Assembly: GCA_050253415.1 (NCBI GenBank)
Contig: JBFWJC010000008.1
Coordinates: forward strand, 32,001 to 96,000
Direction of reading: 5' to 3'
Source of the DNA: Pedobacter sp.
GTDB taxonomy: Bacteria; Desulfobacterota; Desulfuromonadia; Desulfuromonadales; Syntrophotaleaceae
Length of the DNA: 64,000 nucleotides
Shown here: piece by piece, positions 1,575 to 54,895 of the stretch
Layout of the letters: each line of letters begins with the position of its first letter
Numbering within the stretch: position 1 is the first letter of the stretch
The notes under the pieces: model-generated
Seen by the model: the letters and a program-made list of their open reading frames with translations, nothing else
Databases searched by the model: none
Told to the model about the DNA's origin: nothing
Position numbers and translations under genes: made by a program

Positions 1575-1620
1575 AAAAAGGGGGGAGGAAGCGCTGTTCG
1601 TGACGCATCCCCCTCCCCCT
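1575..1620 (-). terminator. Hairpin plus U-tract between acpP and fabF
   Basis: GGGGGAGG...CCTCCCCC inverted repeat with A5 on its left (U-tract on minus strand). Confidence 0.55.
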
Positions 1621-1638
1621 CAATACCTGCAAGTCAGA

Positions 1639-1872
1639 TCAAGAATTTGCCGAAATATAATCAACGGCATCCTGTACAGTCTGAATCTTTTCAGCGTCTT
1701 CGTCGGAGATTTCGATATCGAATTCTTCTTCGAGAGCCATAACCAGTTCTACAGTGTCAAGGGAATCGGCACCAAGGTCGTCCATGAAAGAAGCATCTCC
1801 GGTTACCTGTGCTTCATCTACACCCAACTGCTCAGCAATAATCTGTTGTACTCTTTCCTCGATAGAAGCCAT
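1639..1872 (-). CDS. acpP: Acyl carrier protein
   Basis: [14 protein letters not shown] phosphopantetheine motif; ATG at 1872 follows AAGGAGG. Confidence 0.97.
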
Positions 1873-1947
1873 CTGCTTCACCTCCTTGTTGTTGTTCGGA
1901 CCGATACAGAATCGGACTGAAGACTATACTCGCGAAATTTTACTTTG

Positions 1948-2685: not shown

Positions 2686-2698
2686 ATTTCACTCCCTC

Positions 2699-3625: not shown

Positions 3626-3656
3626 GTGAAGTATTATCTCCTTTACGACAGGGGCT

Positions 3657-4640
3657 TTACCACCGAAAAAGGGCAGAGCCCCATGTAAAGCCTCCACCAA
3701 ATGCATTCAGCAACACAACATCACCGGTCTTGATCCGACCTCCCCTGTGCGCCTCATCAAGAGCTATGGGGATGGAAGCAGCCGATGTATTGCCAACGCG
3801 GTCAACGTTGACCATGACCTTTTCAAGGGGGACACCCAATCGTTTCGCTGTGGCCTCGAGAATCCGTCGATTAGCTTGATGGGGAATGAGAAGATCCACG
3901 TCACTTGCCGTCAGATCATTTGCAGCGAGGGCTTCTTCTCCGGCTTCACACAGCGACCGTACAGCGACCTTGAAAACTTCATTGCCCTGCATCTGAACAA
4001 ACGGATTGCCAGCTTCGGCGGTCGAGCTATCGGCAGGGTTACGGGAACCCTGTCCCATTTGGTACAATAACGGCCAGCAACTACCGTCTGTGTGAAGATG
4101 GCAGCTTAACAAGCCCCTATCTTCTTCTCCGGCCTCAAGCACGACAGCACCCGCACCATCGCCAAACAGAATGCAGGTACCCCTATCCTTCCAATCCACT
4201 ATCCTGCTGAACACCTCGGCGCCAATCAGCAATATCTTCTTGGCGGTTCCCGACTGGATATAACTATTAGCAATAGACAGCCCATAAAGAAAACCACTGC
4301 ATGCTGCAGATATATCGAATGCAAAAGCACGACTGGCCTGTAAGTTACTCTGTACAAGGCATGCGGTAGCCGGCCAATTGAAATCGCCGGTCACCGTAGC
4401 AACAATAATAAGATCGATTTCATCTGCAGCAACACCGGCCATGGACATGGCGCGCCTGGCGGCTTCAGTTGCAAGATCAGAGGTATGCTCACCGTCAGTT
4501 GCAATGCGACGTTCGCGGATACCTGTACGGGTCCAGATCCATTCATCCGTTGTGTCGACTAACTGCTCCAGATCAGCGTTGGTCAAAACTTTTTCAGGTA
4601 GATAGGATCCAGTACCAGTAATACACGTTCGCTTCATCAT
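3657..4640 (-). CDS. fabH: 3-oxoacyl-ACP synthase III
   Basis: AACSGF, PHQAN, GNTSAAS, FGGGFTWG. Confidence 0.96.
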   Translation of the reverse strand: MMKRTCITGTGSYLPEKVLTNADLEQLVDTTDEWIWTRTGIRERRIATDGEHTSDLATEAARRAMSMAGVAADEIDLIIVATVTGDFNWPATACLVQSNLQASRAFAFDISAACSGFLYGLSIANSYIQSGTAKKILLIGAEVFSRIVDWKDRGTCILFGDGAGAVVLEAGEEDRGLLSCHLHTDGSCWPLLYQMGQGSRNPADSSTAEAGNPFVQMQGNEVFKVAVRSLCEAGEEALAANDLTASDVDLLIPHQANRRILEATAKRLGVPLEKVMVNVDRVGNTSAASIPIALDEAHRGGRIKTGDVVLLNAFGGGFTWGSALFRW

Positions 4641-18214: not shown

Positions 18215-18319
18215 GCAACTACTCCTCGTGGTGGTGAGCGGATAATCCCGCTGCCGGATCTGAAGGGGGAGACATTTCCCCACAGTTCACGGACTTAAAT
18301 ATGACCCACCGTCTCGCTC

Positions 18320-38973: not shown

Positions 38974-39050
38974 TGGCGCGCCAGGAAGGACTCGAACCCT
39001 CGACCCTGTGATTAGAAGTCACATGCTCTATCCAGCTGAGCTACTGGCGC
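38974..39050 (-). tRNA. tRNA-Arg(TCT)
   Basis: GCGCCAG/CTGGCGC acceptor stem, anticodon loop ctTCTaa, encoded CCA. Confidence 0.96.
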
Positions 39051-39055
39051 TTAAA

Positions 39056-39132
<77 letters not shown>

Positions 39133-39257: not shown

Positions 39258-40094
39258 TCAGTATAGCGCCTTAAACCAGACATTCATGCTTTCCTGTCGA
39301 CCACAGATCTGGGTGTTGTTGCGCAGCGTACCGCCAAACCGGTACCCCATGCGGGAAAAGGTAATGTTCATACCGTACGAATAGGCCCTGGCGATGGTGA
39401 ATGCCGTGCGGATGCCATCTGAACGAATCGCTCGCTCCATACTTGCCAGAAGAATCTGAGCCAGCCCCATCCCGCGGAAAGAGGACAGCGTAGCAAAGTC
39501 CGTCATTTCGGCATGCCTTGCTCCCCGATCCATTTCAGCCGAGGCCAAAGCTACCAACCGACCATCGTGCCAGACGCCAAAGTAGCGCACATTATCACGC
39601 ATGGTATCCCGCAGATAACCTGGATCGTGGATAGGAAATGGATAGCTGGCAAAAACCTCTTTGTAGACCGCCGCGGCCGCTTCGACATCTGCTTCAATCA
39701 ATGGCCGCAATTCGGCTCCTTGCGGCAACGCAGGCAACCCGCCATTCGACTGGGTCGCAGCTTTGGCGAGGACATCTTTCACCAACTTCGGCTCACGTTC
39801 AACCGAGCGCTCGGAATGCAGGAACTTGCCCAGCAGCACCCCCTCCTCCCGGCCATGAAACAATTGCGGCACGCGCGCCTCGGCCCGATAACCATTATCC
39901 AGAAAATCCTGACTGACGCTGGCCGGAACCTTGGCAAAAATCTTGGAATATCCTTCGCGAAATGCCAAAGCGTCGAGTTCATCGACAATTTCCGGACAAT
40001 CCGCAGGAGAGATTTTCATAAGATAGATGCGCTCGCTATTTTCACCATGCTGGATCAGGGAACTGCCGATGCGTTCCATGCGATCAATCATCAC
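39258..40094 (-). CDS. ablB: Putative beta-lysine N-acetyltransferase (GNAT)
   Basis: [48 protein letters not shown]; overlaps the aminomutase stop. Confidence 0.88.
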
Positions 40095-41388
40095 TCCTCC
40101 TGTCCATCCGGTCGGTATCCTCCGGCGTCAGGGAAATGGTATCGTCGTGGTCCGACAGCAACTTGACGATGCCGGTCGCCTGGCATTCGTCCGCGCCCTT
40201 GAGCTTGAGCTGAAGGTGGCAATCGTTGCAGCGACGATCGCAGAAAATCGGCTCGTAGCTATGCGGCTCCTGATAGGTAGTGATAACCCCTTCGTAATTT
40301 CGCAACACCACTTTATTCGTGGACAGAGAAATCAGATAGTTCGGATTGAGAGGAATCTTACCGCCGCCGCCCGGCGCATCCACCACGTAAGTGGGGATGG
40401 CAAAACCGCTGGTATGCCCAATGAGATTCTCCATAATTTCAATCCCTTTACCAATGGGCGTACGAAAATGCGCCAGACCTTCGGAAAGATCACACTGGTA
40501 CAGGTAGTAGGGTCGCACCCGATTATCAACCAACCGATGTACCAGCTCCTTGATAATACGCGGGCAATCGTTTACCCCGGCCAACAGCACCGTCTGATTT
40601 CCCAGAGGGAACCCTGCATCAGCCAGCTTGCGCAAAGCGGTTCGTGCCGACGATGTAAGCTCACGAGAGTGATTGAAATGGGTATTGATCCACAAGGGTT
40701 GATGCTTGCGCAGCATGTTGACCAGATCATCGGTAATCCGGCAGGGCAGCACCACTGGCATACGCGTACCGATGCGCACAACCTGAACATGGGGAATACG
40801 CCGCAACTCCGTGAGAATCCAGTCGAGATGATCGTCAGACAACATCAGGGGGTCGCCCCCGGATAACAGCACATCGCGAATCTGGGGCGTTCTGGCAATA
40901 TAATCCAGGCCCTGCAGGATTTCATCCCTGCCCGGGATGGAATCCTGGTCCCCGACCTTACGTTTCCGCGTACAGTGCCGACAATACATCGCACACAGGT
41001 TGCTTACGTGAAACAGAACCCGGTCGGGATAACGATGGGTGATTCCGGGGGCGGGGCTGTCCTTGTCTTCCGCCAAAGGATCCGCCATCTCGCGAGAATC
41101 CGTTTCCAACTCTTGGGGTGCGGGAAATGACTGGATAAAAACCGGATCATTTTGATAATCCGAGAAATCAATAAGAGACAGGTAGTAAGGTGTTATGGCA
41201 AGGGGAAATTTTTCAAGGGTTAAAGCAATGCTCTTACGAAAGTCCTGATCAAACTCGATACCAGCTATACGTTCAAACGTTTTGACATCTTTGATTGCAT
41301 GTTTTACATGCCAGCGCCAATCCTCCCAATTTTTAGTAAAAGTGTCCTCAAAACCGATTTTTTTAGCTATCTTCCTCTCAACTTTCAA
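40084..41388 (-). CDS. ablA: Lysine 2,3-aminomutase (radical SAM/PLP)
   Basis: [39 protein letters not shown]; coupled to ablB. Confidence 0.92.
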
Positions 41389-42223
41389 AAGAATTATCTT
41401 TCTCCCTTCATGATTAAAATTCTTCTAAAGATATTACATTTCCACTTCGATGTCAAATTCGGCCATTCACAACAATTATTTACGTTAATTTGAAATTCTC
41501 GTAAAATCTTCTAACTGTTATAAAATTAATGGGTTTTTTCAATTTCAGCGTGAATGGCAATTTTTATATTTTCAATCATATACCATTAAACTTTTTACGA
41601 CCTAAATAGAGACGATTGAAAACCAAATATTTTACATATTCATACATTCAAAAAGCTAGTTCATAACTTATAAAAACAACAAGCACTATCGGTCAGAAAC
41701 ATTACAGCCCACAGCCATACCCGGACACAAGCCGAGAACAAGAAATAAATCTCAGTGTTCGCCAATCAACCGCGATCTGAATCGCCCATCCCCGCTCCAA
41801 CAAGCCAGGCCAAACAAAGCGAACCCACCCCGAGAAACAATCTCCAAGCATTATGCCTGACCTTGAACATAAGAATAACATTATCGAAATGTTACACATA
41901 GTGGCACGCAACAGGATCACTACTTACTTCAAGTATATTGAGAAGTAATTGACACAAGATATTGTTTTATCATTGTTTTTAATTTTAAACAGGATACAGA
42001 AGGACTGATATTAACAAATTTATGTTACATATCAAGTAGACATTAGAAACTTACCAGACAGCTACCTCAGGTACTGACGCCTCCAAAAAGGCGGTACCCA
42101 TAGCCCTATTGAAGAACGAACCAGGACGAAAAGGAAATGAACGAGACAAAAACGAGGGGGAAGAATAACGATGAAGCACACAAGGAGCCAGGACCAGCTA
42201 TATGAAACCTTGTCGGCGAGCCT

Positions 42224-42847
42224 TTACAGAATATGCTTTTTACGGGCAACCGCCACGGCTTCCATGCGATTGTTGACTTCCAGCTTCTTAAAAATTCTTT
42301 GCACGTGCGTTTTGATGGTTTCGATACTGACAAAATTAATCTGGGCTATATTTTTCAATACACGGATTTCGGTCTTGGTCAGGTTATGCTCGCAACTGTC
42401 ACCTTCCTCATCCTGCATTTGGCGCCACTTTATCGCAAGATTCAAAAGATAAGGCGAGTGACATTCTCTTCCCTCAGCAAAATCCTCAATAATCTTTATC
42501 AGTTCATCAATTTTTGTATTTTTTGCGACATAACCGTTGGCTCCTTCGAGCATGGCCTCCTGAACATATTCTTTCTTGGTATAAGTGGACAGCACGATGA
42601 TCTTCAGATCCGGCAGTGTCTTGCGCAACACGCGGATGGCTTCTATACCTGACAACCCCGGCATATCAACATCCATAAGCACAACATCCGGCGGGTTTTC
42701 ATTGATGGCATTGACCGCATCAAAACCGTTATCCGCTTCACCCACAATTTTGATGTGTTGCTTCGACTCGAGATACATACTCAAGCCGATACGCAGAATG
42801 GGATGGTCATCGGCTATAAAAACCGTTACGGGTCTCGTTTCATTCAT
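42224..42847 (-). CDS. NarL/LuxR-family response regulator with apparently shortened HTH
   Basis: IADDHPILR, LMDVDMP, VLST, YVAK; C-terminal ETIKTHVQRIFKKLEVNNRMEAV. Confidence 0.9.
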   Translation of the reverse strand: MNETRPVTVFIADDHPILRIGLSMYLESKQHIKIVGEADNGFDAVNAINENPPDVVLMDVDMPGLSGIEAIRVLRKTLPDLKIIVLSTYTKKEYVQEAMLEGANGYVAKNTKIDELIKIIEDFAEGRECHSPYLLNLAIKWRQMQDEEGDSCEHNLTKTEIRVLKNIAQINFVSIETIKTHVQRIFKKLEVNNRMEAVAVARKKHIL

Positions 42848-44507
42848 AGTCGGTCTCCCTTGGCACACTATATTCCTGACCGCTTGTAACAGGAATGCGA
42901 AAGCGAAACCGCCCACCCGTTACCTCAGCCCCGGATTCATCAGCATAGGGCGATTCCACCCATATTTCTCCGCCATGAGCTTCAACAACCATTTTGCTGA
43001 ATGTGAGCCCCAATCCGACGCCACGACGTTCGTTGCCACGCTGTACACTCGTCGTATAAAACTTCTCAAAAATAAGGGCCTGTTTCTCTTTGTCTATACC
43101 TTGCCCCTGGTCGTCAATGGTCACAAGTATACAATCCCCATGTTCCGGATCGGACAATTGCTCGGCCTTCACAAAAATTTCGCCTTCGGGAGGGCTGAAA
43201 CGAATGGCGTTTTCCAGAAGATTGACACAGGTACGCTGAATACGACTCCAATCCGCCAACATCCGCACACCGGCACGACCGGGTTGGAAGGATATGTTGA
43301 TTTTCTTGTCGTCGGCTGAAAATCCAACATGCCTGATACTCTCGACAAGCGTGGAATCCATGTCGCCGGGCACCTGGCAAAGATTAACACCCGCACATTC
43401 ATCCAGAAAAATATCAAGAAAGTTCGAAACCATACCGGATAACTTGTGAGTCGAATTCAGGGCCAGGGACACGAGATCGCCGCCCCTGTCGTTAAGAGAG
43501 CCAAGATGCCCGTCCAGCATCAACTCCAGCACCCTCTGGATGGACAAAATCGGGTTGCCCATGTCGTGGGTCAGCATGCCGATCAGGTCCTCCTTCATCT
43601 TTTCTACTTTTTTTTCCTGGGTTACGTCCCGCAATACGGTCACATACCCCATAGCTTCCCGCTTGGTGAGAAAGATTTCCTGAAAGGAGGCATGGGCGTA
43701 AAAAATCTGGCCGTCGGGTTTCAGAACTTCGAAAACCGGCTGAGCGTCAATAATTTCCTGGTGATTTTTGCCAACCAGGTACTCTTTAAACGCTTCCGGC
43801 CTGGCAAAAAGAGAGAATATCGGTTGCCCGACAATAGAGGAGGGTTCACGGCCGAACATTTTGACCGTTGCTTTATTGATCAGAGTAACAATGCCGCCTA
43901 CATCGGTCGATATGATGGCCTCGGAAACGCTGTTGATGATGTTATGCAGATTTTTCTGATAGGCCTTTTGCGACAGATACTTCTGAATAGCCAGAGAGCT
44001 GATGGTTTTAGCGATGGTGCACATGAGGTTCACCGCTGACTGCAGTCTCTGATAACTCATCACCGGCACTTCATGCAATGCCCTGAGGTATCCCGCAATA
44101 TCTTCGACACCGATTCGCTTGGCTGCGTCAATCGCTTCTTCAACGGAGAGGGGTTTTGTCAGGACCTGCCCCATCACCAACGTTGCGACATGATACCCCT
44201 CTACAATAATCGGGGTAGCGCTATCCATGAGACCGGCATTCAGACACTTATAAATAAAGGGCTTACCTATTTTCTTCCCTTCTTCACCACCGAACCTGTC
44301 GCTGGCATAGCACTTTGCCCGCCCTTCCGGGGTCGAACGGCAATAATCTTTACACAGTCGCGAAAAATTGTGCTCGCGCGTGATCGGCTGCCCGGTCAGA
44401 TCGACCAAAACCGAAGCAACACGCGTCGCCTTGGTAAAGTCCCGAACGATCTCCTCCAGTACTTCCTTTTCAATCAGATCGAGGATTTGTATCTGCTGAC
44501 TCGCCAT
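42840..44507 (-). CDS. PocR-PAS sensor histidine kinase (no TM segments seen)
   Basis: PocR motifs NFSRLC..CRSTPEGRAKCYASD, YKCLNAGLMD..PIIVEG..GQV; PAS; THDMGNP; NLLENAIRF, DQGQGI, GVGLGL. Confidence 0.88.
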   Translation of the reverse strand: MASQQIQILDLIEKEVLEEIVRDFTKATRVASVLVDLTGQPITREHNFSRLCKDYCRSTPEGRAKCYASDRFGGEEGKKIGKPFIYKCLNAGLMDSATPIIVEGYHVATLVMGQVLTKPLSVEEAIDAAKRIGVEDIAGYLRALHEVPVMSYQRLQSAVNLMCTIAKTISSLAIQKYLSQKAYQKNLHNIINSVSEAIISTDVGGIVTLINKATVKMFGREPSSIVGQPIFSLFARPEAFKEYLVGKNHQEIIDAQPVFEVLKPDGQIFYAHASFQEIFLTKREAMGYVTVLRDVTQEKKVEKMKEDLIGMLTHDMGNPILSIQRVLELMLDGHLGSLNDRGGDLVSLALNSTHKLSGMVSNFLDIFLDECAGVNLCQVPGDMDSTLVESIRHVGFSADDKKINISFQPGRAGVRMLADWSRIQRTCVNLLENAIRFSPPEGEIFVKAEQLSDPEHGDCILVTIDDQGQGIDKEKQALIFEKFYTTSVQRGNERRGVGLGLTFSKMVVEAHGGEIWVESPYADESGAEVTGGRFRFRIPVTSGQEYSVPRETDYE

Positions 44508-44625
44508 TCCAGCTCCTTAGTCCGCCAACTGAAGGTTTGACACCCCGCCGGCCAGATATCTTCCCATGAGTTATTGATAGCATGAGACCCACTACCGGCC
44601 AAAGTAAAATGTCGTTTACAGCATA

Positions 44626-44725
44626 GGGGTGACGCCGATTATCACTATTTCGGGGGACAAAATGAAGGATTGCGGGGGACAACCTGGAGGGGGTGACATG
44701 CAAGTTCACTATTACGGGGGACAAA
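44626..44725. repeat. Direct-repeat array in the divergent promoter (putative operator sites)
   Basis: GGGGTGAC-N8-TCACTATTWCGGGGGACAAA at 44626-44661 and 44690-44725; third CGGGGGACAA at 44673-44682. Confidence 0.8.
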
Positions 44726-44899
44726 TATAGCATCTTGTAGCGATTGTTATTCAGCCCTCCCTAACATACAAATAAGGTGCGCGCAAAAAGAAACGACCCG
44801 AATTCAGACTTTGCAAAGAAAGACGTACGTCAACCAATTATTTTATTTAATTCGCTACGTTCGTATCACATTTAAGGGCATCCAGGAAAGGGAAAAACC

Positions 44900-45865
44900 A
44901 TGGCTCCTTGGTCTGTAGACACGTTATTACTTTGCTTTGGTGGCGGTATCGTCGGTGCAGCTCTCGGCGGACTGTTTTCTTTCAGCATTTGCGGCCTGAT
45001 TGTTCTGGCCGGTTGCTTCGTCATCTTTAACGGCGGTTCAGAGTTCCTGCTCATGCAGGTCGGACTGGGTCCCCTTTTTGGGCCTCACACCGGCGGCTTT
45101 GTAGCCGGAGTCGCTGCCGTAGCCTACGCTGCCGGTATCAAAAAAAACCTTCCGAGCGGCAGCGGCAAGGACATCCTTTCGCCGCTTATCGGTACCTCCT
45201 GGGATGTACTGCTGGTCGGAGGGGTGTTCGCGGTCTTTGGTCATGTGCTGCTGCAACTGCTGGTCAAAATTCCGTTTGTCAACATGGCGGACTGCATCGC
45301 ACTTACAGTCGTCATCACCCAGTGTGTTGCGCGCCTGCTGTTCTTGAAAGAAATGCCATGGGGTAATGGCGCATCAATTCGCGCCCATGGCTTCCTGGGC
45401 ACCAACGATGGAGCACTGTCCTGGGTCCCATGGATGGCACAACCTGCCCGCCTGATCGTGTTCAGCTTTGGCGTCGGCCTGTTATCGGCCGCTATGGCCA
45501 TGGGCACCAAAAACGTCCTCGACCCCATGGTTGTTCAAGGCACCGTCTCGGCTACCGGCGCCTTCGTGGTGCCCCTGATCTTTGCCTGGGGCATTGCCGC
45601 CATCAGCCTGATCGGTCTGCAGTTGGGTACCGGCGAAATCCAGAAGTTACCTGTCTGGCACTGCCAGGCCATCCTCAGCGCCCTGGCTTTCCTGTTGTTC
45701 AACTCCCTGGTGTTGGCAGCCATTGTCGGCATCCTGGCCGGTCTGCTGCAGGAACTGGTAGCACGAGCCATGTGGAACCACGGGTCTACCCATATCGATC
45801 CGCCAGCCGGCGCCATTGCAGTCGGCACCCTGATCCTCAACCTGGCACACGGCTTCATTAAGTAA
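44900..45865 (+). CDS. Uncharacterised polytopic membrane protein (putative small-solute channel/transporter)
   Basis: About 9-10 Gly/Ala-rich hydrophobic segments; motifs FGPHTGGF, GKDI, HIDPPA; first gene of GRE operon. Confidence 0.75.
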   Translation: MAPWSVDTLLLCFGGGIVGAALGGLFSFSICGLIVLAGCFVIFNGGSEFLLMQVGLGPLFGPHTGGFVAGVAAVAYAAGIKKNLPSGSGKDILSPLIGTSWDVLLVGGVFAVFGHVLLQLLVKIPFVNMADCIALTVVITQCVARLLFLKEMPWGNGASIRAHGFLGTNDGALSWVPWMAQPARLIVFSFGVGLLSAAMAMGTKNVLDPMVVQGTVSATGAFVVPLIFAWGIAAISLIGLQLGTGEIQKLPVWHCQAILSALAFLLFNSLVLAAIVGILAGLLQELVARAMWNHGSTHIDPPAGAIAVGTLILNLAHGFIK

Positions 45866-45998
45866 CTCGGAAATACCCGGCGGGCAACCCCGCTAAACCG
45901 ATTATCCGATTTTTGCAGCACATACACAGCATCCGGCAGAGCACATAGTGCCTGCCAGATAAAAACAGACATCTCAAAAACCCTCAAAAGGAGGAAAC

Positions 45999-48398
45999 AT
46001 GTCTACCAAAGTAAAAGTTAACCCTGTCGTCGCTACTCAGGGCCCCACCGAACGCGTCGAGAAAATCAAGGCTAGATTCCTGGCTACAACTCCGGAAATC
46101 TGCGCCGAACGTGCCAAGCTCATCACCGAATCCTACAAGGAGACCGAAGGCCTGCCCATGACTACCCGGCGCGCCAAAGCGTTGGAAAAAATCCTCATGG
46201 GGATGTCGATCTACATTGAAGACGATGAATTGATTGTAGGCAACCAGTGCAGCATGCCCCGCTCCGCTCCCGTTTATCCTGAATTCTCCTGCGAGTGGCT
46301 GGAAGCCGAACTTGACCGTCTTGCCAAACGCACGGCCGATGTCTTCCTGATCAGCGAAGACGTCAAGCAGACTTTGCGTGAAGATGTTTTCCCCTACTGG
46401 AAAGGCAAAACCAACCAGGAGATCGCCACGGCATTGATGAAGCAGGAAGCCATCGATGCAGGCAACGCGGTTGTCTACACCGTCGGCAACTACTACTTCA
46501 ACGGCGTCGGTCACATTTCGGCTAACTACGGCAAGGTCATGAGCCAGGGCCTCAACGCCGTTATCGCCGAAGCCGAAGCAGCCAAGGCAAAATTCGACTA
46601 CGCCGATGCACACCAAATGAAGTCGCTGCACTTTCTGGAGTCGACCATCATCGCCAACAAGGCTGTCATCGCTTTCGCCAATCGGTATGCCGATGAAGCC
46701 GATCGTCTGGCCGCGGCCGAGAAGGACGCCGCCCGTAAAGCCGAACTGCTTGAGATCGCCCGCATCTGCCGCAAGGTGCCTGCGCAACCGGCAGAAACCT
46801 TCCAGGAAGCAGTACAGGCATTCTGGTTCATCCACCTGGTCATCCAGCTCGAATCGAACGGTCACTCCATCTCGCCGATGCGTTTCGACCAGTACTGCTA
46901 CCCCTTCTATGCAGCAAGCAAAGACTCCATGTCGGACGCAAAGGTCCAGGAACTGCTCGACCTGATGTGGCTCAAGCTCAACGGCCTGAACAAGGTTCGC
47001 GACGAAAACTCCACCATGGCTTTTGCCGGCTACCCGATGTTCATGAACATCATTGTCGGCGGCGTGGACCGCGAAGGCAAAGACGCCACCAACGAACTGT
47101 CGCTGATGCTTCTGCAGGCAGCGGCCAACACCAAACTCTATGCCCCTTCCCTGTCGGTTCGTATCCACGAAGGGACTGCGGATGAGCTGTACATGAAGGC
47201 CGCCGAAGTCAGCCGCATGGGTCTTGGCGTTCCGGCTTTCTTCAACGACCGCACCATCATTCCGGCCCTTCTGTCCCGTGGCCTGACCCTGGAAGACGCG
47301 CGCGACTACGGCATCATCGGTTGCGTCGAGCCCCAGGTCGGCGGCAAGACCGAAGGCTGGCATGACGCCGCCTTCTTCAACATGGCCAAGGTTATCGAGC
47401 TTACCCTCAATAACGGCTACGACAAGCGCACTGCCATGCAGGTTGGTCCCCAGACCGGCGCCGTTACCGAAATGAAGTCTTTCGACGACGTTATGGCCGC
47501 CTATACCAAGCAAATGGAATACTTCGTTGGCTTGATGTGCCACGCCGACAACATGGTTGATCTGGCCCATGGTCAAAATGTGCCCCTGCCCTTCCTTTCC
47601 AGCCTGGTTGAAGACTGCATCGGTCGCGGCAAGTCGCTGCAGGAAGGTGGCGCCATCTACAACTTCAGCGGCCCGCAAGGCGTTGGCGTCGCAAACGCCG
47701 GGGATGCCCTGACCGCTATCAAGAAGCTGTGCTTCGATGAAAAGGTCATCAGCCTGCCGGAACTGAAAGAGGTTCTCGACAAGGACTTCGAAGGCGCTGA
47801 AAACATCCGCCAGATGCTCGTCAACCGTGCTCCCAAATATGGCAACGACGATGACTACGCGGATGAAATCGCCGTCGAATCGGCCAACATCTACTGCCGC
47901 GAAGTCAACAAGTACCACAACCCCCGTGGCGGTCAGTTCCAGCCCGGTCTCTACCCGGCATCTGCCAACGTACCTTTTGGTGGCGTGGTTGAGGCAACCC
48001 CGGACGGCCGCAAAAAAGGCACTCCTCTGGCCGACGGCGTTTCCCCCATCGGAGGTTTCGATATCTCCGGTCCGACCGCAACGGTTAACTCCGTCGCCAA
48101 GCTCGACCATGAAGTCACCTCCAACGGCACCCTGCTCAACCAGAAGTTCCATCCCAACGCCGTGAAGGGTGAAGAAGGTCTGCGTAACCTTATCGCCGTT
48201 ACCGAAACCTACTTCAAAAATGGCGGGTTCCATGTGCAGTACAACGTCATCGACCGGAAAACCCTGGAGAAAGCCCAGGAAAAACCGGAAGAATTCGCCA
48301 GCCTGGTGGTTCGCGTAGCCGGCTACAGCGCCTTCTTTACCGCGCTGGATAAATCTCTGCAGGATGACATCATGTCCCGCACCGAGCAGGTCTTCTAA
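45999..48398 (+). CDS. Glycyl radical enzyme, B12-independent glycerol/1,2-propanediol dehydratase clade
   Basis: IGCVEP (C442/E444), RVAGYS (G775), NGVGH, SNGHS, GWHD, GLYP; AGGAGG RBS. Confidence 0.9.
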   Translation: MSTKVKVNPVVATQGPTERVEKIKARFLATTPEICAERAKLITESYKETEGLPMTTRRAKALEKILMGMSIYIEDDELIVGNQCSMPRSAPVYPEFSCEWLEAELDRLAKRTADVFLISEDVKQTLREDVFPYWKGKTNQEIATALMKQEAIDAGNAVVYTVGNYYFNGVGHISANYGKVMSQGLNAVIAEAEAAKAKFDYADAHQMKSLHFLESTIIANKAVIAFANRYADEADRLAAAEKDAARKAELLEIARICRKVPAQPAETFQEAVQAFWFIHLVIQLESNGHSISPMRFDQYCYPFYAASKDSMSDAKVQELLDLMWLKLNGLNKVRDENSTMAFAGYPMFMNIIVGGVDREGKDATNELSLMLLQAAANTKLYAPSLSVRIHEGTADELYMKAAEVSRMGLGVPAFFNDRTIIPALLSRGLTLEDARDYGIIGCVEPQVGGKTEGWHDAAFFNMAKVIELTLNNGYDKRTAMQVGPQTGAVTEMKSFDDVMAAYTKQMEYFVGLMCHADNMVDLAHGQNVPLPFLSSLVEDCIGRGKSLQEGGAIYNFSGPQGVGVANAGDALTAIKKLCFDEKVISLPELKEVLDKDFEGAENIRQMLVNRAPKYGNDDDYADEIAVESANIYCREVNKYHNPRGGQFQPGLYPASANVPFGGVVEATPDGRKKGTPLADGVSPIGGFDISGPTATVNSVAKLDHEVTSNGTLLNQKFHPNAVKGEEGLRNLIAVTETYFKNGGFHVQYNVIDRKTLEKAQEKPEEFASLVVRVAGYSAFFTALDKSLQDDIMSRTEQVF

Positions 48399-48422
48399 GC
48401 TGCTTATCTTGTTGTAACACTT

Positions 48423-48452
48423 GGGGGCCGGATACATCCGGATCCGGCCCCC
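48423..48452 (+). other. GC-rich intercistronic hairpin between GRE and activase
   Basis: GGGGGCCGGAT-N8-ATCCGGCCCCC, 11-bp perfect stem, no U-tract. Confidence 0.75.
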
Positions 48453-48497
48453 GCCCCACCTGGTAATACGGTTAAACCGAACACCTGGAGAACAACC

Positions 48498-49466
48498 ATG
48501 AACTGGAGAGAAAAGGTCCTTGATTTTGACAACATCGGCGATCGTGGCGAAGGGCTGAAGGGATTGATTTTCGATGTTCAGAAGTTCGCTATCCACGATG
48601 GCGGGGGTATCCGCACCAATGTTTTCCTTAAAGGATGCCCGCTGCAATGCCTGTGGTGCTCGAACCCTGAATCCCTGGCATCCAAGCCGGAAATCACCTT
48701 CGTGACCAACAACTGCATTGGCTGTGGCAAATGCCTGGAGGTATGTCCGGCAGGAGCCATCCGTCAAGGAGAAACAGCCGGTGAAGACATCATCATCGAC
48801 CGGGAGCGCTGCACCCTGTGCGGCCAGTGTGCAAAACACTGCTACGCAGGAGCCATCAACATTATCGGACGGTATGTTTCCGTTCCCGAACTGATGCAGA
48901 TCATCGAGCGTGACCGCAAATTTTATGAGCAGAGCGGCGGCGGAGTCACCTTTTCAGGTGGGGAACCAACCGCACAGCCGGAATTCCTTAAAGCGGCCCT
49001 GGCAGAAATCCAGAAACGCGGTATTCACACTGCCATAGAAACCAGTTCACTTTTACCCTGGGATATTTACGTTTCGATCCTGAAGCACGTCGACCTGGTG
49101 CTGAGCGACATCAAGCACATGGACGATGCCGAGCATAAGCGCCTCACCGGGGTTTCCAACCAACTGATTCTCGATAATATTCGCAACATCTCCAAGCTCG
49201 GTATCCCGGTAAAGATTCGTCTGCCATTGATTCCCGGCATCAACGATTCCGACCGTAATCTCGAAGCCACCGCCGAATTTGTGGAGCAATTGAGCAATGT
49301 ACAGTCGCTCGACATTCTGCCCTATCACCGTCTGGGTGAAATGAAATACCGACAACTGGATCTCAGTTACCCCTTAAAGGGTGTGGAATCGCCAACGGTT
49401 GAACACGTTGAAGAGCGAATCCGCGCTCTCCGGGAAAGGGGATTAAACATTTCCGTCGGCGGGTAG
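48498..49466 (+). CDS. Glycyl-radical enzyme activase with ferredoxin-like insertion
   Basis: HDGGGIRT..FLKGCPLQCLWCSNPES, CIGCGKCLEVCP and CTLCGQCAKHC, GGVTFSGGEP, LPYHRLG. Confidence 0.95.
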   Translation: MNWREKVLDFDNIGDRGEGLKGLIFDVQKFAIHDGGGIRTNVFLKGCPLQCLWCSNPESLASKPEITFVTNNCIGCGKCLEVCPAGAIRQGETAGEDIIIDRERCTLCGQCAKHCYAGAINIIGRYVSVPELMQIIERDRKFYEQSGGGVTFSGGEPTAQPEFLKAALAEIQKRGIHTAIETSSLLPWDIYVSILKHVDLVLSDIKHMDDAEHKRLTGVSNQLILDNIRNISKLGIPVKIRLPLIPGINDSDRNLEATAEFVEQLSNVQSLDILPYHRLGEMKYRQLDLSYPLKGVESPTVEHVEERIRALRERGLNISVGG

Positions 49467-49561
49467 CACCTGTTCCATCGTTTCACAGATACCATTTAAT
49501 TTTTTTATGAGTAGTTATTCCTCGCAAGTAACGATCTTTTTTATCTAGGAGGTAAAAGGAT

Positions 49562-50824
49562 ATGCCAACGTTCAAGCAACTATTCTGTGTTCTTGCCGCA
49601 GCCGCGACCCTGTTCGCGGCCTGCCCTGCTGATGCCGCTTTCGTTGTCGGAGGCAGTGACGGCTGGTCGTTCAGCACCGACGGCAACGTCAACCTGTTTT
49701 TGCGCTACACCACGGCCGACCAACGGCCGGACAATGTTCACAGCGCCTTTTATACCCTGTCCGATGACCAGGATTCCTTCCGTACCCGCAGCGGCTTTTT
49801 GCCCGGCGTACTGGCCTTCAACATCAAGGCACCGACCATGGGTGGACTCGACATGGCGGCACGGGTCGGCTTTTACCCCAATCCCCAAAATGGTAATACC
49901 AAAAACAGCTTCAGCGGACAGATCGACCTGCGCGAGATCTTCTTCACTGTTGACGGCAACTTCGGCCAGTTCCTGGTCGGTAAAGCCTTCAGCTTGTTCC
50001 AGGGCCAGAACTGCCTGACCGGCATGTCGGTCTACGGATTCGGCATCGAAGGTGCTGTGTCCGGCGGCGGCGCAACCCTTGGCAACATCGGTTATGGCTA
50101 CATCTACCCCCAGTTCAATGCCCAATTGCGTTACACCACCCCCGATATGAACGGCTTTAAACTGGCCGTTGCGATTCACGACCCCTCCCAGATTAATGGC
50201 TCGGGCGTCGGCCTCGATTCAAACGTTTACAATCCGTCCGCCGTTGAAACCAATACCCCGCGCTGGGAAGGCGAACTCTCCTATGCCGGCATCTATGCCG
50301 ACGGTGACGGCACCTTCAAATCCTGGGTCAGCGGTCTGTACCAGAATGCCAAATTCGCCAAAGACAGCGCGTTTGATGGCGACGTGACCGCCTGGGGTGT
50401 AGCCGGTGGCGTACAGGTCGGCTACAAAGCCTACGAGTTGGTCGCTTCGGCCTTCACCGGCGAGGCCCTTGGTTCAACTCTGATGCTTGACTACGACTCT
50501 CTCGATTTTACCGGCGAAGAGCGTGAAGGTTACGGTTACCTGCTGCAAGGTACCTACACCTGGGATAACCGTTTCGGGAAAACCAAATTCGGCATCTGCT
50601 ACGGCGCCAACCGCATGGAGGAAACCTCCGCCGAAAAGGTGGTCCGTGCCGCAACCGATAATGGCGAATTGAAACAACAAGACGTCATCACCGTGGGCGT
50701 TTTCCACGATATCAATCCTCACCTCAAATTGGTGCTGGAATACAATCGTGCCAATGTCGAATGGTTCAACGGCGGCAAACAGGAAGTCGACATCATCGGC
50801 CTGGGTACCTTCTTCATGTGGTAA
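49562..50824 (+). CDS. Outer-membrane porin
   Basis: Signal peptide (..PADA/AF), alternating beta-strand pattern, C-terminal aromatic LGTFFMW. Confidence 0.82.
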   Translation: MPTFKQLFCVLAAAATLFAACPADAAFVVGGSDGWSFSTDGNVNLFLRYTTADQRPDNVHSAFYTLSDDQDSFRTRSGFLPGVLAFNIKAPTMGGLDMAARVGFYPNPQNGNTKNSFSGQIDLREIFFTVDGNFGQFLVGKAFSLFQGQNCLTGMSVYGFGIEGAVSGGGATLGNIGYGYIYPQFNAQLRYTTPDMNGFKLAVAIHDPSQINGSGVGLDSNVYNPSAVETNTPRWEGELSYAGIYADGDGTFKSWVSGLYQNAKFAKDSAFDGDVTAWGVAGGVQVGYKAYELVASAFTGEALGSTLMLDYDSLDFTGEEREGYGYLLQGTYTWDNRFGKTKFGICYGANRMEETSAEKVVRAATDNGELKQQDVITVGVFHDINPHLKLVLEYNRANVEWFNGGKQEVDIIGLGTFFMW

Positions 50825-50845
50825 GAAGTTAATCGGGTAACTCAA

Positions 50846-50884
50846 GTGGCCCGTTCCGGATTTTTTTCGGAACGGGCTACTTAC
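50846..50884 (+). terminator. Hairpin ending the GRE operon
   Basis: GTGGCCCGTTCCG...CGGAACGGGCTAC; weak U-tract. Confidence 0.6.
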
Positions 50885-51175
50885 TCTCGCGGTGCAAGGA
50901 AGCCACAATTCACCCGATATGCCTGCATCAGAAGCTCACGGACTCGAAGTCCCCCCACGCGTCATTGAGCTTATCGACACCGAAGAAAAACGCCCTAAAG
51001 GTGTTCCCTTTGTTAAGCAGATTACGAAAACCGGTGCCAGGACCATGAGGATGCCGATAGTCTTTTTAACCAAGGAGAGTGATTTGCTCACCAAAAAGCC
51101 AACCTCTGACGGATATTCAGCCAACAGCTTGACCTTGTTATGAACGGGTCGGGGTTCAGCCAACGAGGAAAGTCC

Positions 51176-51844
51176 ATGGACGATAAATTACCTGACGCCC
51201 CGATAAATTCGTTAACACGCGATGGCCTGAAACACTTTAAAAACGGTGATTGCGACAAGGCCTTAACCGCATTTGGTGAAGCAGCTTCTCTGTGCAGGCA
51301 AACGGGCAATGTTGCCGGCGAGGCACATCAGCAAATGCTTGTCGCGGATATCTATGGGGCCACCAAGCAGCTGGAAAAGGCACTGGAAGCCTACCATCGG
51401 GTTATTTCCCTGCTTATCGATATCGGCGACAAGGCCGGTATCGCTGCCGTACAGAATAACATCGGACTGCTGTTGGCACGCCTGCAGCGGTTTGACGAAG
51501 CCATGATGGTTTTCAAAGATGCCGAGCAGAATTTTATTGCCTGCAGTGAACCGGAGCGTGCCGCAGAACAATTGGCCAACATGGGGTCGGTCAGCCGTGA
51601 TCGTCAAGATTACCTTCGGGCCCTTGATTACTATCGTCAGGCTTTGCAAGTGTTTGAGAAATTGGATCAACTCAGTAGCGTCGCCGACCAGCACGCCAAT
51701 ATCGGTTACATTCTTGCCCTGACGAACGATAAAGATGCCGGTCTGACCCATTTTGATAGCGCCCTGGATCTATACAAAAAGTTCGATAATGCCGCCAAGA
51801 TTACGCAGACGCTAAAAAACATCGAGCTTCTTCAGGCTGAGTAA
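51176..51844 (+). CDS. Tetratricopeptide repeat protein
   Basis: Repeated NNIG/ANMG/ANIG..AL..Y..AL helical units; GAGGA RBS. Confidence 0.85.
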   Translation: MDDKLPDAPINSLTRDGLKHFKNGDCDKALTAFGEAASLCRQTGNVAGEAHQQMLVADIYGATKQLEKALEAYHRVISLLIDIGDKAGIAAVQNNIGLLLARLQRFDEAMMVFKDAEQNFIACSEPERAAEQLANMGSVSRDRQDYLRALDYYRQALQVFEKLDQLSSVADQHANIGYILALTNDKDAGLTHFDSALDLYKKFDNAAKITQTLKNIELLQAE

Positions 51845-52117
51845 AAAATCACCGACGCAAGCTCTGTTTATCATCAGGCCAAAGATCAATTTTCCGGAGA
51901 TGTCTGGCCTTTTTCAGCGGTTCAGTGATCCGGGCAACAGAATCACTATCGGCCTGGCAGAACCTATTGACGATGCCCTGATCCCCACACGACGGAGACA
52001 TGGCCCTGGTCGCTGGTTGTGGCACCAGAACAATATCCCATAATCCAGGTGGCAAACGCGAACCCGGCCTGCGATAACCTGCCACCCTGTTTGAAGAACC
52101 GCCTAAAAGGATGGATC

Positions 52118-52744
52118 ATGAAACCGAATTGTTCCGCTAAAAGGCTGATAAATAACCGTCAGTCACTGACTGATCGAATTATGACACTGGAATTGGCCAT
52201 GTTCCTGAGCGTTCCCACCAGCCAGCCCTACAGCTGTCAGGAAGATCCGCAAAGTTTCAAAGTACATCGTCAAGCCCAGTTCGCAGCCTGGTCCGTCACT
52301 ACCCTTGAGAGTTATTATTACGATCTCCAGGCAGCTAAAGATGCGGGGCGCAACCTGCTGGCCATCAAGTATGCCCGCATGGATAATCTCGTGCCCTGCG
52401 TCAATTTCATCCCGCGGATCGCGTCCATTGTCCATCTGGCAATAACTGGGCAACAACGGTTTATAGATGCCTATCCTCGCCTGATGCAGGGCGGGCGATC
52501 CTTGACCACCTCAACGGACGATGACGGTCTTACTTCCTTTGAAACCTATTTGCGCTGTGAGCTCGAAACCTATTCCGAAACGACCCTGGGGTTGTTATTG
52601 GCTGACATCCGGGGATTGGAGCAGTCCGGCTCGAGTCTTTCCGAAGCCGTCTATCGCTGTCTTGCACAACAGTGGGGCTTTTACTCGCTGGAAGCTCTGG
52701 AAGCAAGCCTGCAGCAGAAAGGTCCCGCTACAGGTAGTCTTTGA
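52118..52744 (+). CDS. DUF4125-like protein
   Basis: GRNLLAIKYARM and TSFETYLRCELETYS, recalled as DUF4125 motifs. Confidence 0.7.
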   Translation: MKPNCSAKRLINNRQSLTDRIMTLELAMFLSVPTSQPYSCQEDPQSFKVHRQAQFAAWSVTTLESYYYDLQAAKDAGRNLLAIKYARMDNLVPCVNFIPRIASIVHLAITGQQRFIDAYPRLMQGGRSLTTSTDDDGLTSFETYLRCELETYSETTLGLLLADIRGLEQSGSSLSEAVYRCLAQQWGFYSLEALEASLQQKGPATGSL

Positions 52745-53521: not shown

Positions 53522-54895
53522 TCAGTCCTGCAGACACTGCAACAAACCCATGGCCCATTGGCAGGCACCGCAAGGCTCCGGGTTGGTAAAACAGTCCACA
53601 TCGAAATCTTCTTCCTGCACCAGGTCGCAAGGGGCCACACCGCAATTGGAACAGTACGGATAATCGAATTCAACCACATGTTCGCGGAACGTGCGGAATT
53701 CTTCACTGCGCCAGATATCGAGCAGCGGTTGTCGGTGGACATTGCCAAATACCTTGGGTTTAACCAGTCGATCCCAGTCATTGATATAACAACGATAATG
53801 ATGCCAGAGGTAATAACAAGGGTGCACATCGCCATCCCAGGAGATGAACGCCGAGCCTTTCGTGACAAAGGGACACTCACGTTCGTAACGCGGAGTCAAA
53901 GCCGGCAATTTAATTTCAATCCCCATTTCATCGGCCACCCGTTGCGCTTGGTCAAACACATCCTTGACTTCGGCAAGCAGAGCTTCGTCCCGACGAATCA
54001 GCTGCATGACATCCATGAAGATATCTTTTTGACGTGCCTCGGCTTTCATGCGATTAACCAATTGATTTACTTTACGCACTTGCGGATCTACCGCACGAGG
54101 CAGGACCTGTTCCTTCTCCCAGACCATATAATCGTAGACCCTGATATCGAATCCTTCGGCAGACAATTGCCGCTTCCATCGCTCGTAAATCTCAACCGCC
54201 GCATCGATGGAATTATCGTAAGTGATCTGGTTGATCCCGGAAATGTCGTAAGGGAGGGCATGACTGACAATAATAAAATCGGCTCCGCGCTGCGCAACCC
54301 AGCGCACGGTATCCGGCAACTGGTGAAAGTTTTCACGCATGGCAACGAATTCGGTCCCGATTTTGAGCCGGCTGTTCGGCTGCCTCTGGCGGGCTTCGTT
54401 CAGCATCCTGAAGGCCCGGTCCATGTCACTGATATCCTCACCTTCGCGCACCTTGCTGAAGGTCTCGGGCTTGACACCGTCCACCGACAGGCAGATACGG
54501 TCGAGACCGGCGTCAACCAGATCCCGCGCCCAATTACGATCGATCAACAAACCGTTGGACTGGAACCCGATCCAGGCGTCATCGGGCATCAACCGGCGAG
54601 CCCGCTTCACCCATTCGAGGATATGAGGATGCATCAGCGGTTCGCCGATACCGTTGAGAACCAACGATTCGAGATGGGGGAAAACAGGTTCCAGGGCTGC
54701 AAAGGTCTTCTGCGACATATCCGCATCGATGACCTTGCTGTCCGCCGCCTGCTTGACGCACATGGGACAGCGCAAATTGCAGAAGGTCGTACTTTCAACA
54801 AACAACTTGCTGGGATATGGACGCAACGCCGCGGACTCAAGACTGGCGGAAGCCTCTTCAGATCTGTTACTATTCATTGTTGTCTCGTCCTCCAA
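53522..54895 (-). CDS. Radical SAM/SPASM-domain protein (deltaproteobacterial putative maturase type)
   Basis: CNLRCPMC, GIGEPL, SNG; SPASM ECPF..GDVHPC..FGNV..CSNCGVAPC..CFTNPEPCGAC. Confidence 0.87.
   Translation of the reverse strand: MEDETTMNSNRSEEASASLESAALRPYPSKLFVESTTFCNLRCPMCVKQAADSKVIDADMSQKTFAALEPVFPHLESLVLNGIGEPLMHPHILEWVKRARRLMPDDAWIGFQSNGLLIDRNWARDLVDAGLDRICLSVDGVKPETFSKVREGEDISDMDRAFRMLNEARQRQPNSRLKIGTEFVAMRENFHQLPDTVRWVAQRGADFIIVSHALPYDISGINQITYDNSIDAAVEIYERWKRQLSAEGFDIRVYDYMVWEKEQVLPRAVDPQVRKVNQLVNRMKAEARQKDIFMDVMQLIRRDEALLAEVKDVFDQAQRVADEMGIEIKLPALTPRYERECPFVTKGSAFISWDGDVHPCYYLWHHYRCYINDWDRLVKPKVFGNVHRQPLLDIWRSEEFRTFREHVVEFDYPYCSNCGVAPCDLVQEEDFDVDCFTNPEPCGACQWAMGLLQCLQD

Follow-up and report, generated by a model that had tools for sequence, protein, structure and literature searches.

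A cluster of six genes on a 64,000-nt stretch of contig C8 (hereafter the window, to which all coordinates refer unless another contig is named) of the 4.10-Mb genome G000 (18 contigs, completeness 100) encodes a sensor kinase, a response regulator, a membrane protein of the DUF7973 family, a glycyl radical enzyme (GRE), its activase and a porin. Our comparative analysis indicates that this cluster is probably a microcompartment-free, B12-independent module for the use of small vicinal diols and orthologous to Pcar_1395-1400 of Pelobacter (Syntrophotalea) carbinolicus. Its most likely substrate, as judged by elimination and by comparison of substrate pockets, is 1,2-ethanediol and/or glycerol, which we favour over 1,2-propanediol.

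In the proposed mechanism, the diol would cross the outer membrane via a porin-fold, presumably trimeric, channel and the inner membrane via the DUF7973 protein, taken as a passive channel with a fold similar to urea transporters (UT) and Amt proteins. The activase would install the radical on Gly775 of the cytoplasmic GRE, which could then dehydrate the diol to the aldehyde with Cys442 as thiyl site and Glu444 and His172 as acid-base pair. The aldehyde may be oxidised or reduced by iron-dependent alcohol dehydrogenases (Fe-ADHs), CoA-acylating aldehyde dehydrogenases and an aldehyde:ferredoxin oxidoreductase (AOR) encoded at C1:1.37-1.385 Mb. The soluble PocR-PAS kinase would sense the diol within the cell and phosphorylate the LuxR-type regulator, the probable target of which is the set of CGGGGGACAA repeats in the divergent promoter region.

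Layout and known relatives of the cluster

The genes for the kinase and the regulator are located on the minus strand and are divergent from four plus-strand genes that encode, in this order, the DUF7973 protein, the GRE, the activase and the porin. The two transcription directions are separated by a spacer of 392 bp, and the intergenic gaps within the plus-strand row measure 133, 99 and 95 bp. The sequence-only reading had proposed this arrangement, and all six genes were found where it had placed them, using Pfam and TIGR profiles. No convincing terminator was detected among the four plus-strand genes in a consensus scan, the yield of which (17 terminator-like sites compared to 13.9 expected) was no better than chance. 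Screening of the window against Rfam (gathering thresholds) revealed no riboswitch or leader in the cluster; the four tRNAs and the L20 leader that it detected are all located outside.

It had also been claimed that genes for shell proteins, aldehyde dehydrogenases, alcohol dehydrogenases and GlpF/PduF are missing from the vicinity, and this absence proved to be wider still. The bacterial microcompartment (BMC) shell domain PF00936 had zero matches in the whole genome in a search in which control genomes gave matches, and the same holds true for the MIP/GlpF family PF00230, for which nine control genomes gave matches. The large subunit of the B12-dependent diol dehydratase was likewise absent from the genome in a search that was positive in two control genomes. 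All 12 aldehyde dehydrogenase (Aldedh) and all 13 Fe-ADH matches are located on contigs other than C8.

A corresponding cluster has been described before. In the passages of their genome paper that concern it, Aklujkar et al. (2012; BMC Genomics 13:690, PMC3543383) present Pcar_1394-1400 of P. carbinolicus as a ‘glycerol dehydratase gene cluster’. Pcar_1400 is given there as a LuxR response regulator, Pcar_1399 as a Hist_Kin_Sens(PocR)-PAS kinase, Pcar_1398 as a membrane protein with multiple transmembrane segments, Pcar_1397 as the glycerol dehydratase, Pcar_1396 as the activase, Pcar_1395 as an outer membrane channel and Pcar_1394 as a radical SAM protein linked to the cluster, with Pcar_1401 and Pcar_1402 as ablA and ablB. 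The same passages propose that the inner-membrane and outer-membrane proteins help glycerol to diffuse into the cell, and report paralogous triads at the 1,3-propanediol and the acetoin/butanediol clusters of P. carbinolicus. Pcar_1394-1402 comprises the same genes in the same order as the window, including the ablA/ablB and radical SAM neighbours. Compared to it, the genome analysed here has an extra module on contig C2, genes for a TPR and a DUF4125 protein between the porin and the radical SAM genes, and a deletion in the regulator gene. The complete genome G004 of the same genus shows the order M48, radical SAM, porin, activase, GRE, DUF7973, kinase, regulator, ablA and ablB, which matches Pcar_1394-1402. 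Its proteins are 92% (GRE), 94% (DUF7973), 84% (kinase) and 79% (regulator) identical to those of the window, and its GRE carries the same pocket residues (F/M/A, see below).

The cluster is thus an ordinary one for the Pelobacter/Syntrophotalea group, a further member of a described kind. The functional interpretation as a sense-import-dehydrate module, put forward in the sequence-only reading, is retained on comparative evidence, but its presentation as new or unusual is not, given the Pcar cluster of 2012 and the shell-free enzyme of Clostridium butyricum. That reading had also said that prior characterisation of the same architecture would speak against it. Architecture and interpretation have indeed been in print since 2012, in the form of genome annotation described from sequence and not of experiments. 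A literature search returned this genome paper and reviews only, and no experimental study of a glycyl-radical diol dehydratase from Pelobacter or Desulfovibrio. What remains of interest is the channel hypothesis for DUF7973, a switch at two pocket positions of the dehydratase, a corrected assignment of the ethanediol dehydratase and the damaged regulator.

The lack of a shell is in line with the nearest solved relative of the GRE, the C. butyricum glycerol dehydratase DhaB1 with its activase DhaB2 (1r8w, 1r9d), which can be aligned from end to end and shares the Cys-x-Glu loop and the glycyl site. According to the part of Zarzycki (2017) that deals with this enzyme, it lacks an encapsulation insertion and has no association with a microcompartment, like the window GRE. 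For the nearest characterised relative, a shell-free glycyl-radical dehydratase thus represents the norm and no oddity. The C. butyricum enzyme differs in its pocket (Y/Q/S in comparison to F/M/A), and its host is Gram-positive, hence the lack of a porin; its operon is not known to include a DUF7973 gene. The propanediol GREs have the same chemistry as the window GRE and a Phe at the position equivalent to Tyr339, and the C2 paralogue shares their full F/Q/V combination. They are encoded in shell-protein loci together with an acylating aldehyde dehydrogenase, while the window genome has neither a shell gene nor the insertion known from the Roseburia enzyme 5i2a. The regulatory and membrane part of the cluster recurs with another enzyme type. 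Desulfobulbaceae-type B12 loci (L015, L018, L019, L033, L060, L066) have the same PocR-PAS kinase and LuxR regulator, and the row of genes that leads to the dehydratase likewise begins with DUF7973. In these loci, the dehydratase is a three-subunit B12 enzyme with a reactivase, a BMC-domain protein is present and a linked porin is missing.

The sensor kinase, the regulator and the control region

The sensor histidine kinase (42840..44507, minus strand) has the domain order PocR-PAS-HisKA-HATPase_c, with Pfam scores of 172.5 bits for PocR (PF10114; cut-off 23.9), 41.8 for PAS, 29.5 for HisKA and 84.6 for HATPase_c. No hydrophobic segment was detected in the protein, as no 19-residue window reached a hydrophobicity of at least 1.6, and the kinase is therefore expected to be soluble and cytoplasmic. 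The gene of the NarL/LuxR-type response regulator (42224..42847, minus strand; the listed open reading frame (ORF) extends to 42916) probably starts at ATG 42847 behind the ribosome-binding site AAGGGAGA and encodes 207 aa. This start overlaps the stop codon of the kinase gene by 8 nt, a pattern typical of translational coupling.

The regulator had been proposed as a part of the module. It is present and has both a receiver domain (REC, 100.9 bits) and a LuxR/GerE domain, but its helix-turn-helix carries a 27-nt in-frame deletion at 42340/42341, which is flanked by short direct repeats. Because of this deletion, the GerE match is only partial: it reaches 34.1 bits (cut-off 23.5) and covers just profile positions 21-57 of 57. 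The regulator of the C2 paralogue, in comparison, scores 69.5 bits over positions 3-57. The nine missing residues are kept in all seven orthologues, in the regulator of the C2 paralogue and in the regulator of one of the B12 loci (L033), and the 27 nt are present in all three aligned orthologous DNAs. The deleted form was found in a contig of the probable source run X1 at a depth of 48. In X2 and X3, two other runs, one contig each (depth about 7-8) had the extra 27 nt.

These data could mean that the module is regulatory-dead or decaying in this strain, owing to the partial loss of the helix-turn-helix. The nine residues lost are those kept by every orthologue, the profile match is halved relative to the paralogue and the intact form occurs on contigs of two other runs. 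We nevertheless consider a decaying module possible but somewhat unlikely, as the other five genes are intact. Compared to the nearest relative (L010), the identities amount to 95% for the kinase, 98% for DUF7973, 98% for the GRE, 97% for the activase and 96% for the porin. Furthermore, the reading frame and the region of the recognition helix are retained despite the deletion, and the deleted form is confined to the probable source data, which represent one data set.

The divergent spacer (44508..44899) is marked by repeats and a conserved box. It contains three direct copies of CGGGGGACAA at 44651, 44673 and 44715, which sit inside 22-nt repeats (44647-44732) and 36-nt repeats. In the 64-kb window, these three copies compare to 0.15 expected, and three of the eight copies in the whole 4.1-Mb genome are those of the spacer. 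The promoter-proximal copy lies within the box TCACTAnnnnGGGGGACAAA, and both this box and the TGTAGCGATTGTT behind it are invariant in six of six aligned orthologous spacers. Upstream of the paralogous module on C2 and upstream of the Desulfovibrionaceae loci, CGGGGGACAA was absent. The repeats are a candidate operator for the LuxR-type regulator. A sigma-54 promoter was also considered for this region, as the invariant box has the form TGGCGTCTTGTAGC in L013 and TGGCGTTTTGTAGC in L012, which fits the -24 GG/-12 GC spacing. It was set aside as a resemblance, because TGGCGT is replaced by TAGCAT in the window (44730-44745) and the linked regulator does not belong to the sigma-54 activators.

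The dehydratase, its pocket and the substrate

The GRE gene (45999..48398, plus strand) encodes a protein of the glycerol/diol dehydratase branch. It scores 851 bits against the PFL-like domain PF02901, 119.1 bits against Gly_radical (PF01228) and 849.5 bits against TIGR01774 (cut-off 678.2), and reaches the cut-off of none of the substrate-specific equivalogs among the NCBIfam/TIGR models. Among proteins of solved structure, the highest scores were obtained with the C. butyricum glycerol dehydratase (1r8w, 1030 bits), the Roseburia diol dehydratase (5i2a, 885 bits) and an unnamed glycyl radical protein (9rco, 872 bits). All catalytic motifs are present (NGVGH, ESNGHS, GCVEP, GWHD and RVAGYS) and place the glycyl site at Gly775 (in RVAGYS) and the catalytic Cys442 and Glu444 in GCVEP. 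His172, His289, Ser290 and Asp456 align with His164, His281, Ser282 and Asp447 of the C. butyricum enzyme. According to the section of a 2026 review that treats these enzymes, the Cys-x-Glu motif is common to all six C-O eliminases, and a role is described there for His164. An insertion of ~50 residues in 5i2a (its residues 592-641) is absent from the window GRE in the alignment; for the related GRM3 enzyme of R. palustris, the relevant part of Zarzycki (2017) describes an inter-domain encapsulation peptide.

The pocket distinguishes the window GRE from both characterised types. The glycerol enzyme has the motifs GYPMYQN and GLYPSS (Y/Q/S) and the propanediol enzyme GYSLFQN and GLYPVS (F/Q/V), while the window GRE has GYPMFMN and GLYPAS, that is Phe348, Met349 and Ala654 (F/M/A). 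Tyr339 and Ser642 of the glycerol enzyme and Phe344 and Val696 of the propanediol enzyme are said to contact C3 of the substrate, in work reportedly by LaMattina et al. from 2016. The polar pair of the glycerol type, Tyr339/Ser642, is not matched, as Phe348 and Ala654 take these positions. The propanediol-type pair Phe344/Val696 is not matched either: the Phe is kept, the second residue is Ala654 and Met349 stands for Gln. The C2 paralogue matches this second type.

Among the 120 closest homologues (query included), 47 have F/M/A, 69 F/Q/V, three F/Q/A, one F/M/V and none Y/Q/S. In a quick maximum-likelihood tree of 126 rows, which was rooted only at its midpoint and has long outgroup branches, a clade of 66 rows, nearly all F/Q/V, is sister (support 97-99) to a clade of 56 rows. 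The latter comprises a group of 24 rows with named Desulfovibrionaceae, which are F/M/A except for one F/M/V row, and a second group of 24 rows, also F/M/A, with the query inside. Six F/Q/V rows including the C2 copy of this genome are sister to the group of the query (support 99), so that the F/Q/V clade of the C2 type falls within the F/M/A clade. As the two pocket positions switch jointly and have switched back after a duplication, the joint switch suggests a specificity determinant. On the basis of these two positions, the shell-free dehydratases fall into two classes, both of which can be present in the same genome. The candidate substrates (ethylene glycol, propylene glycol and glycerol) are of practical relevance with regard to glycol waste and the production of 1,3-propanediol.

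The physiology reported for P. carbinolicus, a described species of the group, narrows the choice. It grows on 1,2-ethanediol, some strains or co-cultures use glycerol and one strain uses 1,2-propanediol, according to the physiological statements of PMC3543383. In its account of the dehydratases, the role of oxygen-sensitive 1,2-ethanediol dehydratase was given to a second GRE, 34% identical to the first. The same-genus genome G004 has just two GREs, the F/M/A enzyme and the choline trimethylamine-lyase CutC (1591.7 bits, cut-off 1050), and a search of this genome detected no B12-dependent diol dehydratase. Since its second GRE is a choline lyase and a B12 enzyme is missing, the F/M/A enzyme is the sole candidate for the ethanediol dehydratase, provided that the genus dehydrates ethanediol. 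The assignment of 2012 would accordingly have to be corrected, as that type of GRE is now recognisable by its profile score as a choline lyase. The F/M/A enzyme would also have to account for the reported use of glycerol.

It is conceivable that the enzyme is instead a dedicated glycerol dehydratase, which converts glycerol to 3-hydroxypropanal and thereby to 1,3-propanediol and 3-hydroxypropionate, with ethanediol not being a physiological substrate. The best solved relative is, at 1030 bits, a glycerol dehydratase, and the cluster description in PMC3543383 gives the orthologue to glycerol. The Fe-ADHs and the two semialdehyde dehydrogenases on C1, next to channel and porin paralogues, would fit a route from 3-hydroxypropanal to acetyl-CoA, and Ala654, being smaller than the Val of the propanediol enzyme, could leave room for the C3 hydroxyl. 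The two residues reported to hydrogen-bond this hydroxyl in the glycerol enzyme are, however, Phe and Ala here, the Y/Q/S combination was found in 0 of the 120 closest homologues, and a dhaT-like gene is missing from the cluster and from contig C8. In addition, the choline lyase identity of the other GRE in G004 leaves the F/M/A enzyme for ethanediol. Exclusive use of glycerol is therefore considered unlikely.

The DUF7973 protein, the porin, paralogous modules and neighbouring genes

The first gene of the plus-strand row (44900..45865) encodes a polytopic inner-membrane protein of 321 aa. The sequence-only reading had called it an unknown membrane protein and a novel channel. It is a membrane protein, but its family already has a name, DUF7973 (PF25928), of unknown function. 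PF25928 is the precomputed assignment of the query and of all 120 listed relatives, and the nearest Atlas clusters are 100% DUF7973 with scores of 0.93-0.95. The local Pfam copy, which holds no DUF7973 model, gave no match at E <= 0.001 and hence no UT, Amt or MIP sequence match. Among 1.84 billion representatives, the family comprises 302 clusters (50% identity) at E <= 0.001 and 159 at E <= 1e-10. A literature search found no paper naming DUF7973. The family is small and highly conserved. An alignment of 23 sequences shows a mean column identity of 61%, with K90, D91, W101, D102, D131, Q248, H254, H294, H298 and D300-P301-P302 as invariant residues.

An AlphaFold model based on this alignment reached a predicted local distance difference test score (pLDDT) of 90.9 and a predicted template modelling score (pTM) of 0.90. 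Two methods of fold comparison revealed urea transporters as the best matches, followed by Amt/Rh channels, with moderate Z values. In Foldseek, the best row was the urea transporter 8xdi (E 0.036, probability 0.97, TM 0.38), and no match to the PDB was found at E <= 0.001. The predicted fold appears to resemble UT/Amt channels; their internal repeat was not detected in DUF7973. PduF/GlpF of the MIP family have the same proposed role, the passive entry of polyols before the dehydratase, but no sequence relation to DUF7973.

Genomic context is the stronger evidence on the role of this protein compared to the fold. A profile search of genome contigs yielded 78 loci, 75 of which had a usable DUF7973 match; they are the best matches to a profile dominated by Desulfobacterota, several of them belong to the same genomes, and kinship inflates the counts. 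The neighbours in these 75 loci, confirmed by Pfam for a subset, were a GRE dehydratase (14), a three-subunit B12 diol dehydratase with reactivase (7), an Fe-ADH (20), a Zn-ADH (14) or none of these enzymes (20). DUF7973 thus stands beside a dehydratase or an alcohol dehydrogenase in 55 of 75 loci, and eight of the 20 loci without such a neighbour have <1.4 kb of sequence downstream. In 19 of the 75 loci, a PocR domain was detected at a distance of no more than 5 kb, and all but two of these 19 belong to the 21 dehydratase loci (17 loci). Within the taxonomic order to which the window belongs, 12 of 151 genomes searched had DUF7973. These are 10 of 16 genomes of the window's own family plus this genome, compared to 1 of 134 in the other families. 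An additional contig scan centred on the GRE returned, among the matches listed, mostly relatives of 37-46% identity, with only L088, L090 and L091 being close, and was not used for these counts.

A gene-neighbourhood comparison had been suggested for the whole six-gene architecture. The core of PocR kinase, DUF7973 and dehydratase does recur, both in Desulfuromonadales and in Desulfovibrionaceae, whereas a linked porin was found in Desulfuromonadales only. The porin is a lineage-specific addition outside this widely conserved core. Its gene (49562..50824, plus strand) encodes an outer-membrane beta-barrel protein that has a signal peptide and ends in an aromatic residue. The protein itself had no match at E <= 0.001 in a local Pfam scan. 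Some homologues (45-62% identity) have a precomputed PF13609 (Porin_4) assignment, and the names given to homologues are ‘outer membrane channel, putative’ or ‘porin’. The model (pLDDT 83.6) shows a signal helix at residues 4-20 and then strands. Its best Foldseek match is DcaP (6eus; E 1.7e-19, TM 0.65/0.78), followed by PorB, Omp32 and OmpF, with 276 matches at E <= 0.001. The fold thus agrees with that of Gram-negative general porins of the Porin_4-like, 16-strand trimeric type.

The activase (48498..49466, plus strand), encoded between GRE and porin, is a GRE-activating radical SAM enzyme with 369.8 bits against TIGR02494 (cut-off 174.35). It contains the radical SAM motif CX3CX2C (CPLQCLWC at residue 47) and two ferredoxin-type CX2CX2C motifs (CIGCGKC at 73 and CTLCGQC at 105).

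DUF7973 might also have a role other than import, for instance in the export of the alcohol or aldehyde product or another function in the membrane, with diols entering by simple diffusion. Small diols cross lipid bilayers appreciably, DUF7973 also stands beside alcohol dehydrogenases that may form alcohols, and the evidence for the fold is moderate. The invariant residues K90, D91, D102, D131, H254 and the motif HxxxHxDPP (H294-P302) would suit a metal site or an enzyme as well. We consider such a role quite unlikely, because DUF7973 is the first gene of the presumed operon in both GRE and B12 loci under PocR control, the genome has no MIP-family facilitator and both methods of fold comparison gave, as best matches, exclusively channels for small solutes without charge. 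As a passive channel would let solutes through in either direction, the two interpretations differ mainly in emphasis.

The genomic company of DUF7973 consists almost wholly of enzymes of small alcohols and diols, and if the protein is a channel, it would provide a new answer to the question of how anaerobes without aquaglyceroporins take up glycols. In its widest form, our interpretation holds that DUF7973 is an unrecognised UT/Amt-like family of small alcohol and diol channels, which replaces GlpF/PduF in MIP-less anaerobes and serves as a PocR-controlled front end for GRE dehydratases, B12 dehydratases and alcohol dehydrogenases. It further holds that the F/M/A dehydratase is a distinct specificity class and, in the Pelobacter group, the oxygen-sensitive enzyme that dehydrates 1,2-ethanediol. 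Taken together, these statements form a tentative proposal, which we put forward at less than even odds.

A number of points weigh against the interpretation of the cluster as a working diol module of this kind. With respect to the substrate, the literature names the orthologue a glycerol dehydratase (in the cluster description of PMC3543383), the genome holds a C3 downstream route of the malonate-semialdehyde type, and Met and Ala compared to Gln and Val could merely represent volume-compensating packing with no change in specificity. With respect to transport, adjacency to alcohol and diol enzymes gives no direction of flux and is no proof of a channel. A comparison of the N- and the C-terminal half of DUF7973 did not reveal an internal repeat (hhalign probability 1.6%, E 0.032), and only six of the 75 loci, all of them from Desulfuromonadales, have a porin gene linked to DUF7973. 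With respect to regulation, the loss of nine residues from the helix-turn-helix may impair induction or render the module non-inducible in this strain, and no RNA run was present among the runs listed as holding DNA of the locus.

The genome encodes four DUF7973 paralogues, two of them at GRE modules, one beside a Zn-ADH gene and one in the C1:1.37-1.385 Mb cluster. The second GRE module is complete and is located at C2:586430-596183 (L004:6431-16184), where DUF7973, GRE, activase, porin, LuxR regulator, a single-domain receiver and the PocR-PAS kinase are encoded on one strand. Identities to the window proteins are 70% for DUF7973, 73% for the GRE (pocket F/Q/V), 54% for the activase, 53% for the porin, 43% for the LuxR regulator and 39% for the PocR kinase. 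Judging from its pocket, this module probably serves 1,2-propanediol. That the window enzyme is itself a 1,2-propanediol dehydratase redundant with this paralogue, with Met/Ala and Gln/Val as neutral, volume-compensating packing, would agree with the shared Phe348, the naming of PocR after a propanediol regulator, the pure pocket combinations of 116 of the 120 sequences, as expected from compensatory packing, and the use of 1,2-propanediol by a P. carbinolicus strain (as stated in the physiological part of PMC3543383), but it is very unlikely. Both types, accompanied in each case by a separate set of kinase, regulator, channel and porin, are kept in this genome and in the metagenome-assembled genomes of L012/L020 and L011/L080. 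Furthermore, the clade of the paralogue returned to F/Q/V after duplication, which points to divergent function, and the identity between the two kinases amounts to only 39%.

The suggestion that the aldehyde is handled by enzymes encoded elsewhere agrees with the gene content of C1:1368000-1387000 (L005), where DUF7973 and porin paralogues are encoded together with two Fe-ADHs, an AOR and a ThiF-like protein. This cluster also contains two CoA-acylating semialdehyde dehydrogenases of the MMSDH type (TIGR01722, 689.5 and 527.7 bits, cut-off 448.5), and it supplies the part of the sense-import-dehydrate reading that the window lacks. A transposase-like ORF (HTH_38, with a weak match to the rve integrase core) is located between the AOR and the ThiF-like genes. 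The third GRE of the genome (C1:1263594-1266026; L009:6595-9027) is a choline trimethylamine-lyase (TIGR04394, 1580 bits, cut-off 1050), the activase of which is encoded about 7 kb away (C1:1272869-1273825; L009:15870-16826; 398.8 bits, cut-off 360). In another genome of the same genus, G070, a fourth GRE was observed (L177, C1:2235117-2240105, ORF 1072-3723, minus strand), which is close to the sulfopropanediol dehydratase HpfG at 934.6 bits, just under the cut-off of 1000.

Downstream of the porin gene, the interval 50892-52744 (plus strand) contains an 83-aa ORF and the genes for a TPR protein (51140-51844) and a DUF4125 protein (52019-52744). The latter two are also found 3' of the porin in genome G030, and not at that place in G004. 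They are followed by a conserved neighbour of the cluster, a radical SAM/SPASM ‘putative metalloenzyme maturase’ (53522..54895, minus strand; TIGR04311, 629.4 bits, cut-off 400), the gene of which directly adjoins the porin gene in G004. The next-best family match, to the tungsten-cofactor oxidoreductase maturase TIGR04317, does not reach the cut-off (256.9 bits), and it may be speculated that the protein might mature the tungsten aldehyde oxidoreductase that would take the aldehyde product.

On the other side, the regulator gene is separated from ablA by a spacer of 835 bp (41389-42223), which is AT-rich (GC about 0.38-0.39) and has no long ORFs; its sequence showed no conservation compared to the counterpart of similar length in G004. 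The adjoining genes ablB (TIGR03827, 343.6 bits) and ablA, which encodes a lysine 2,3-aminomutase (TIGR03820, 762 bits), are located at 39258-41388 on the minus strand. Just 3' of ablB lie two adjoining tRNA genes (38977-39132, minus strand), and the L20-Deltaproteobacteria ribosomal leader was detected at 18222-18294 on the minus strand with 61.7 bits compared to a gathering score of 42.8.

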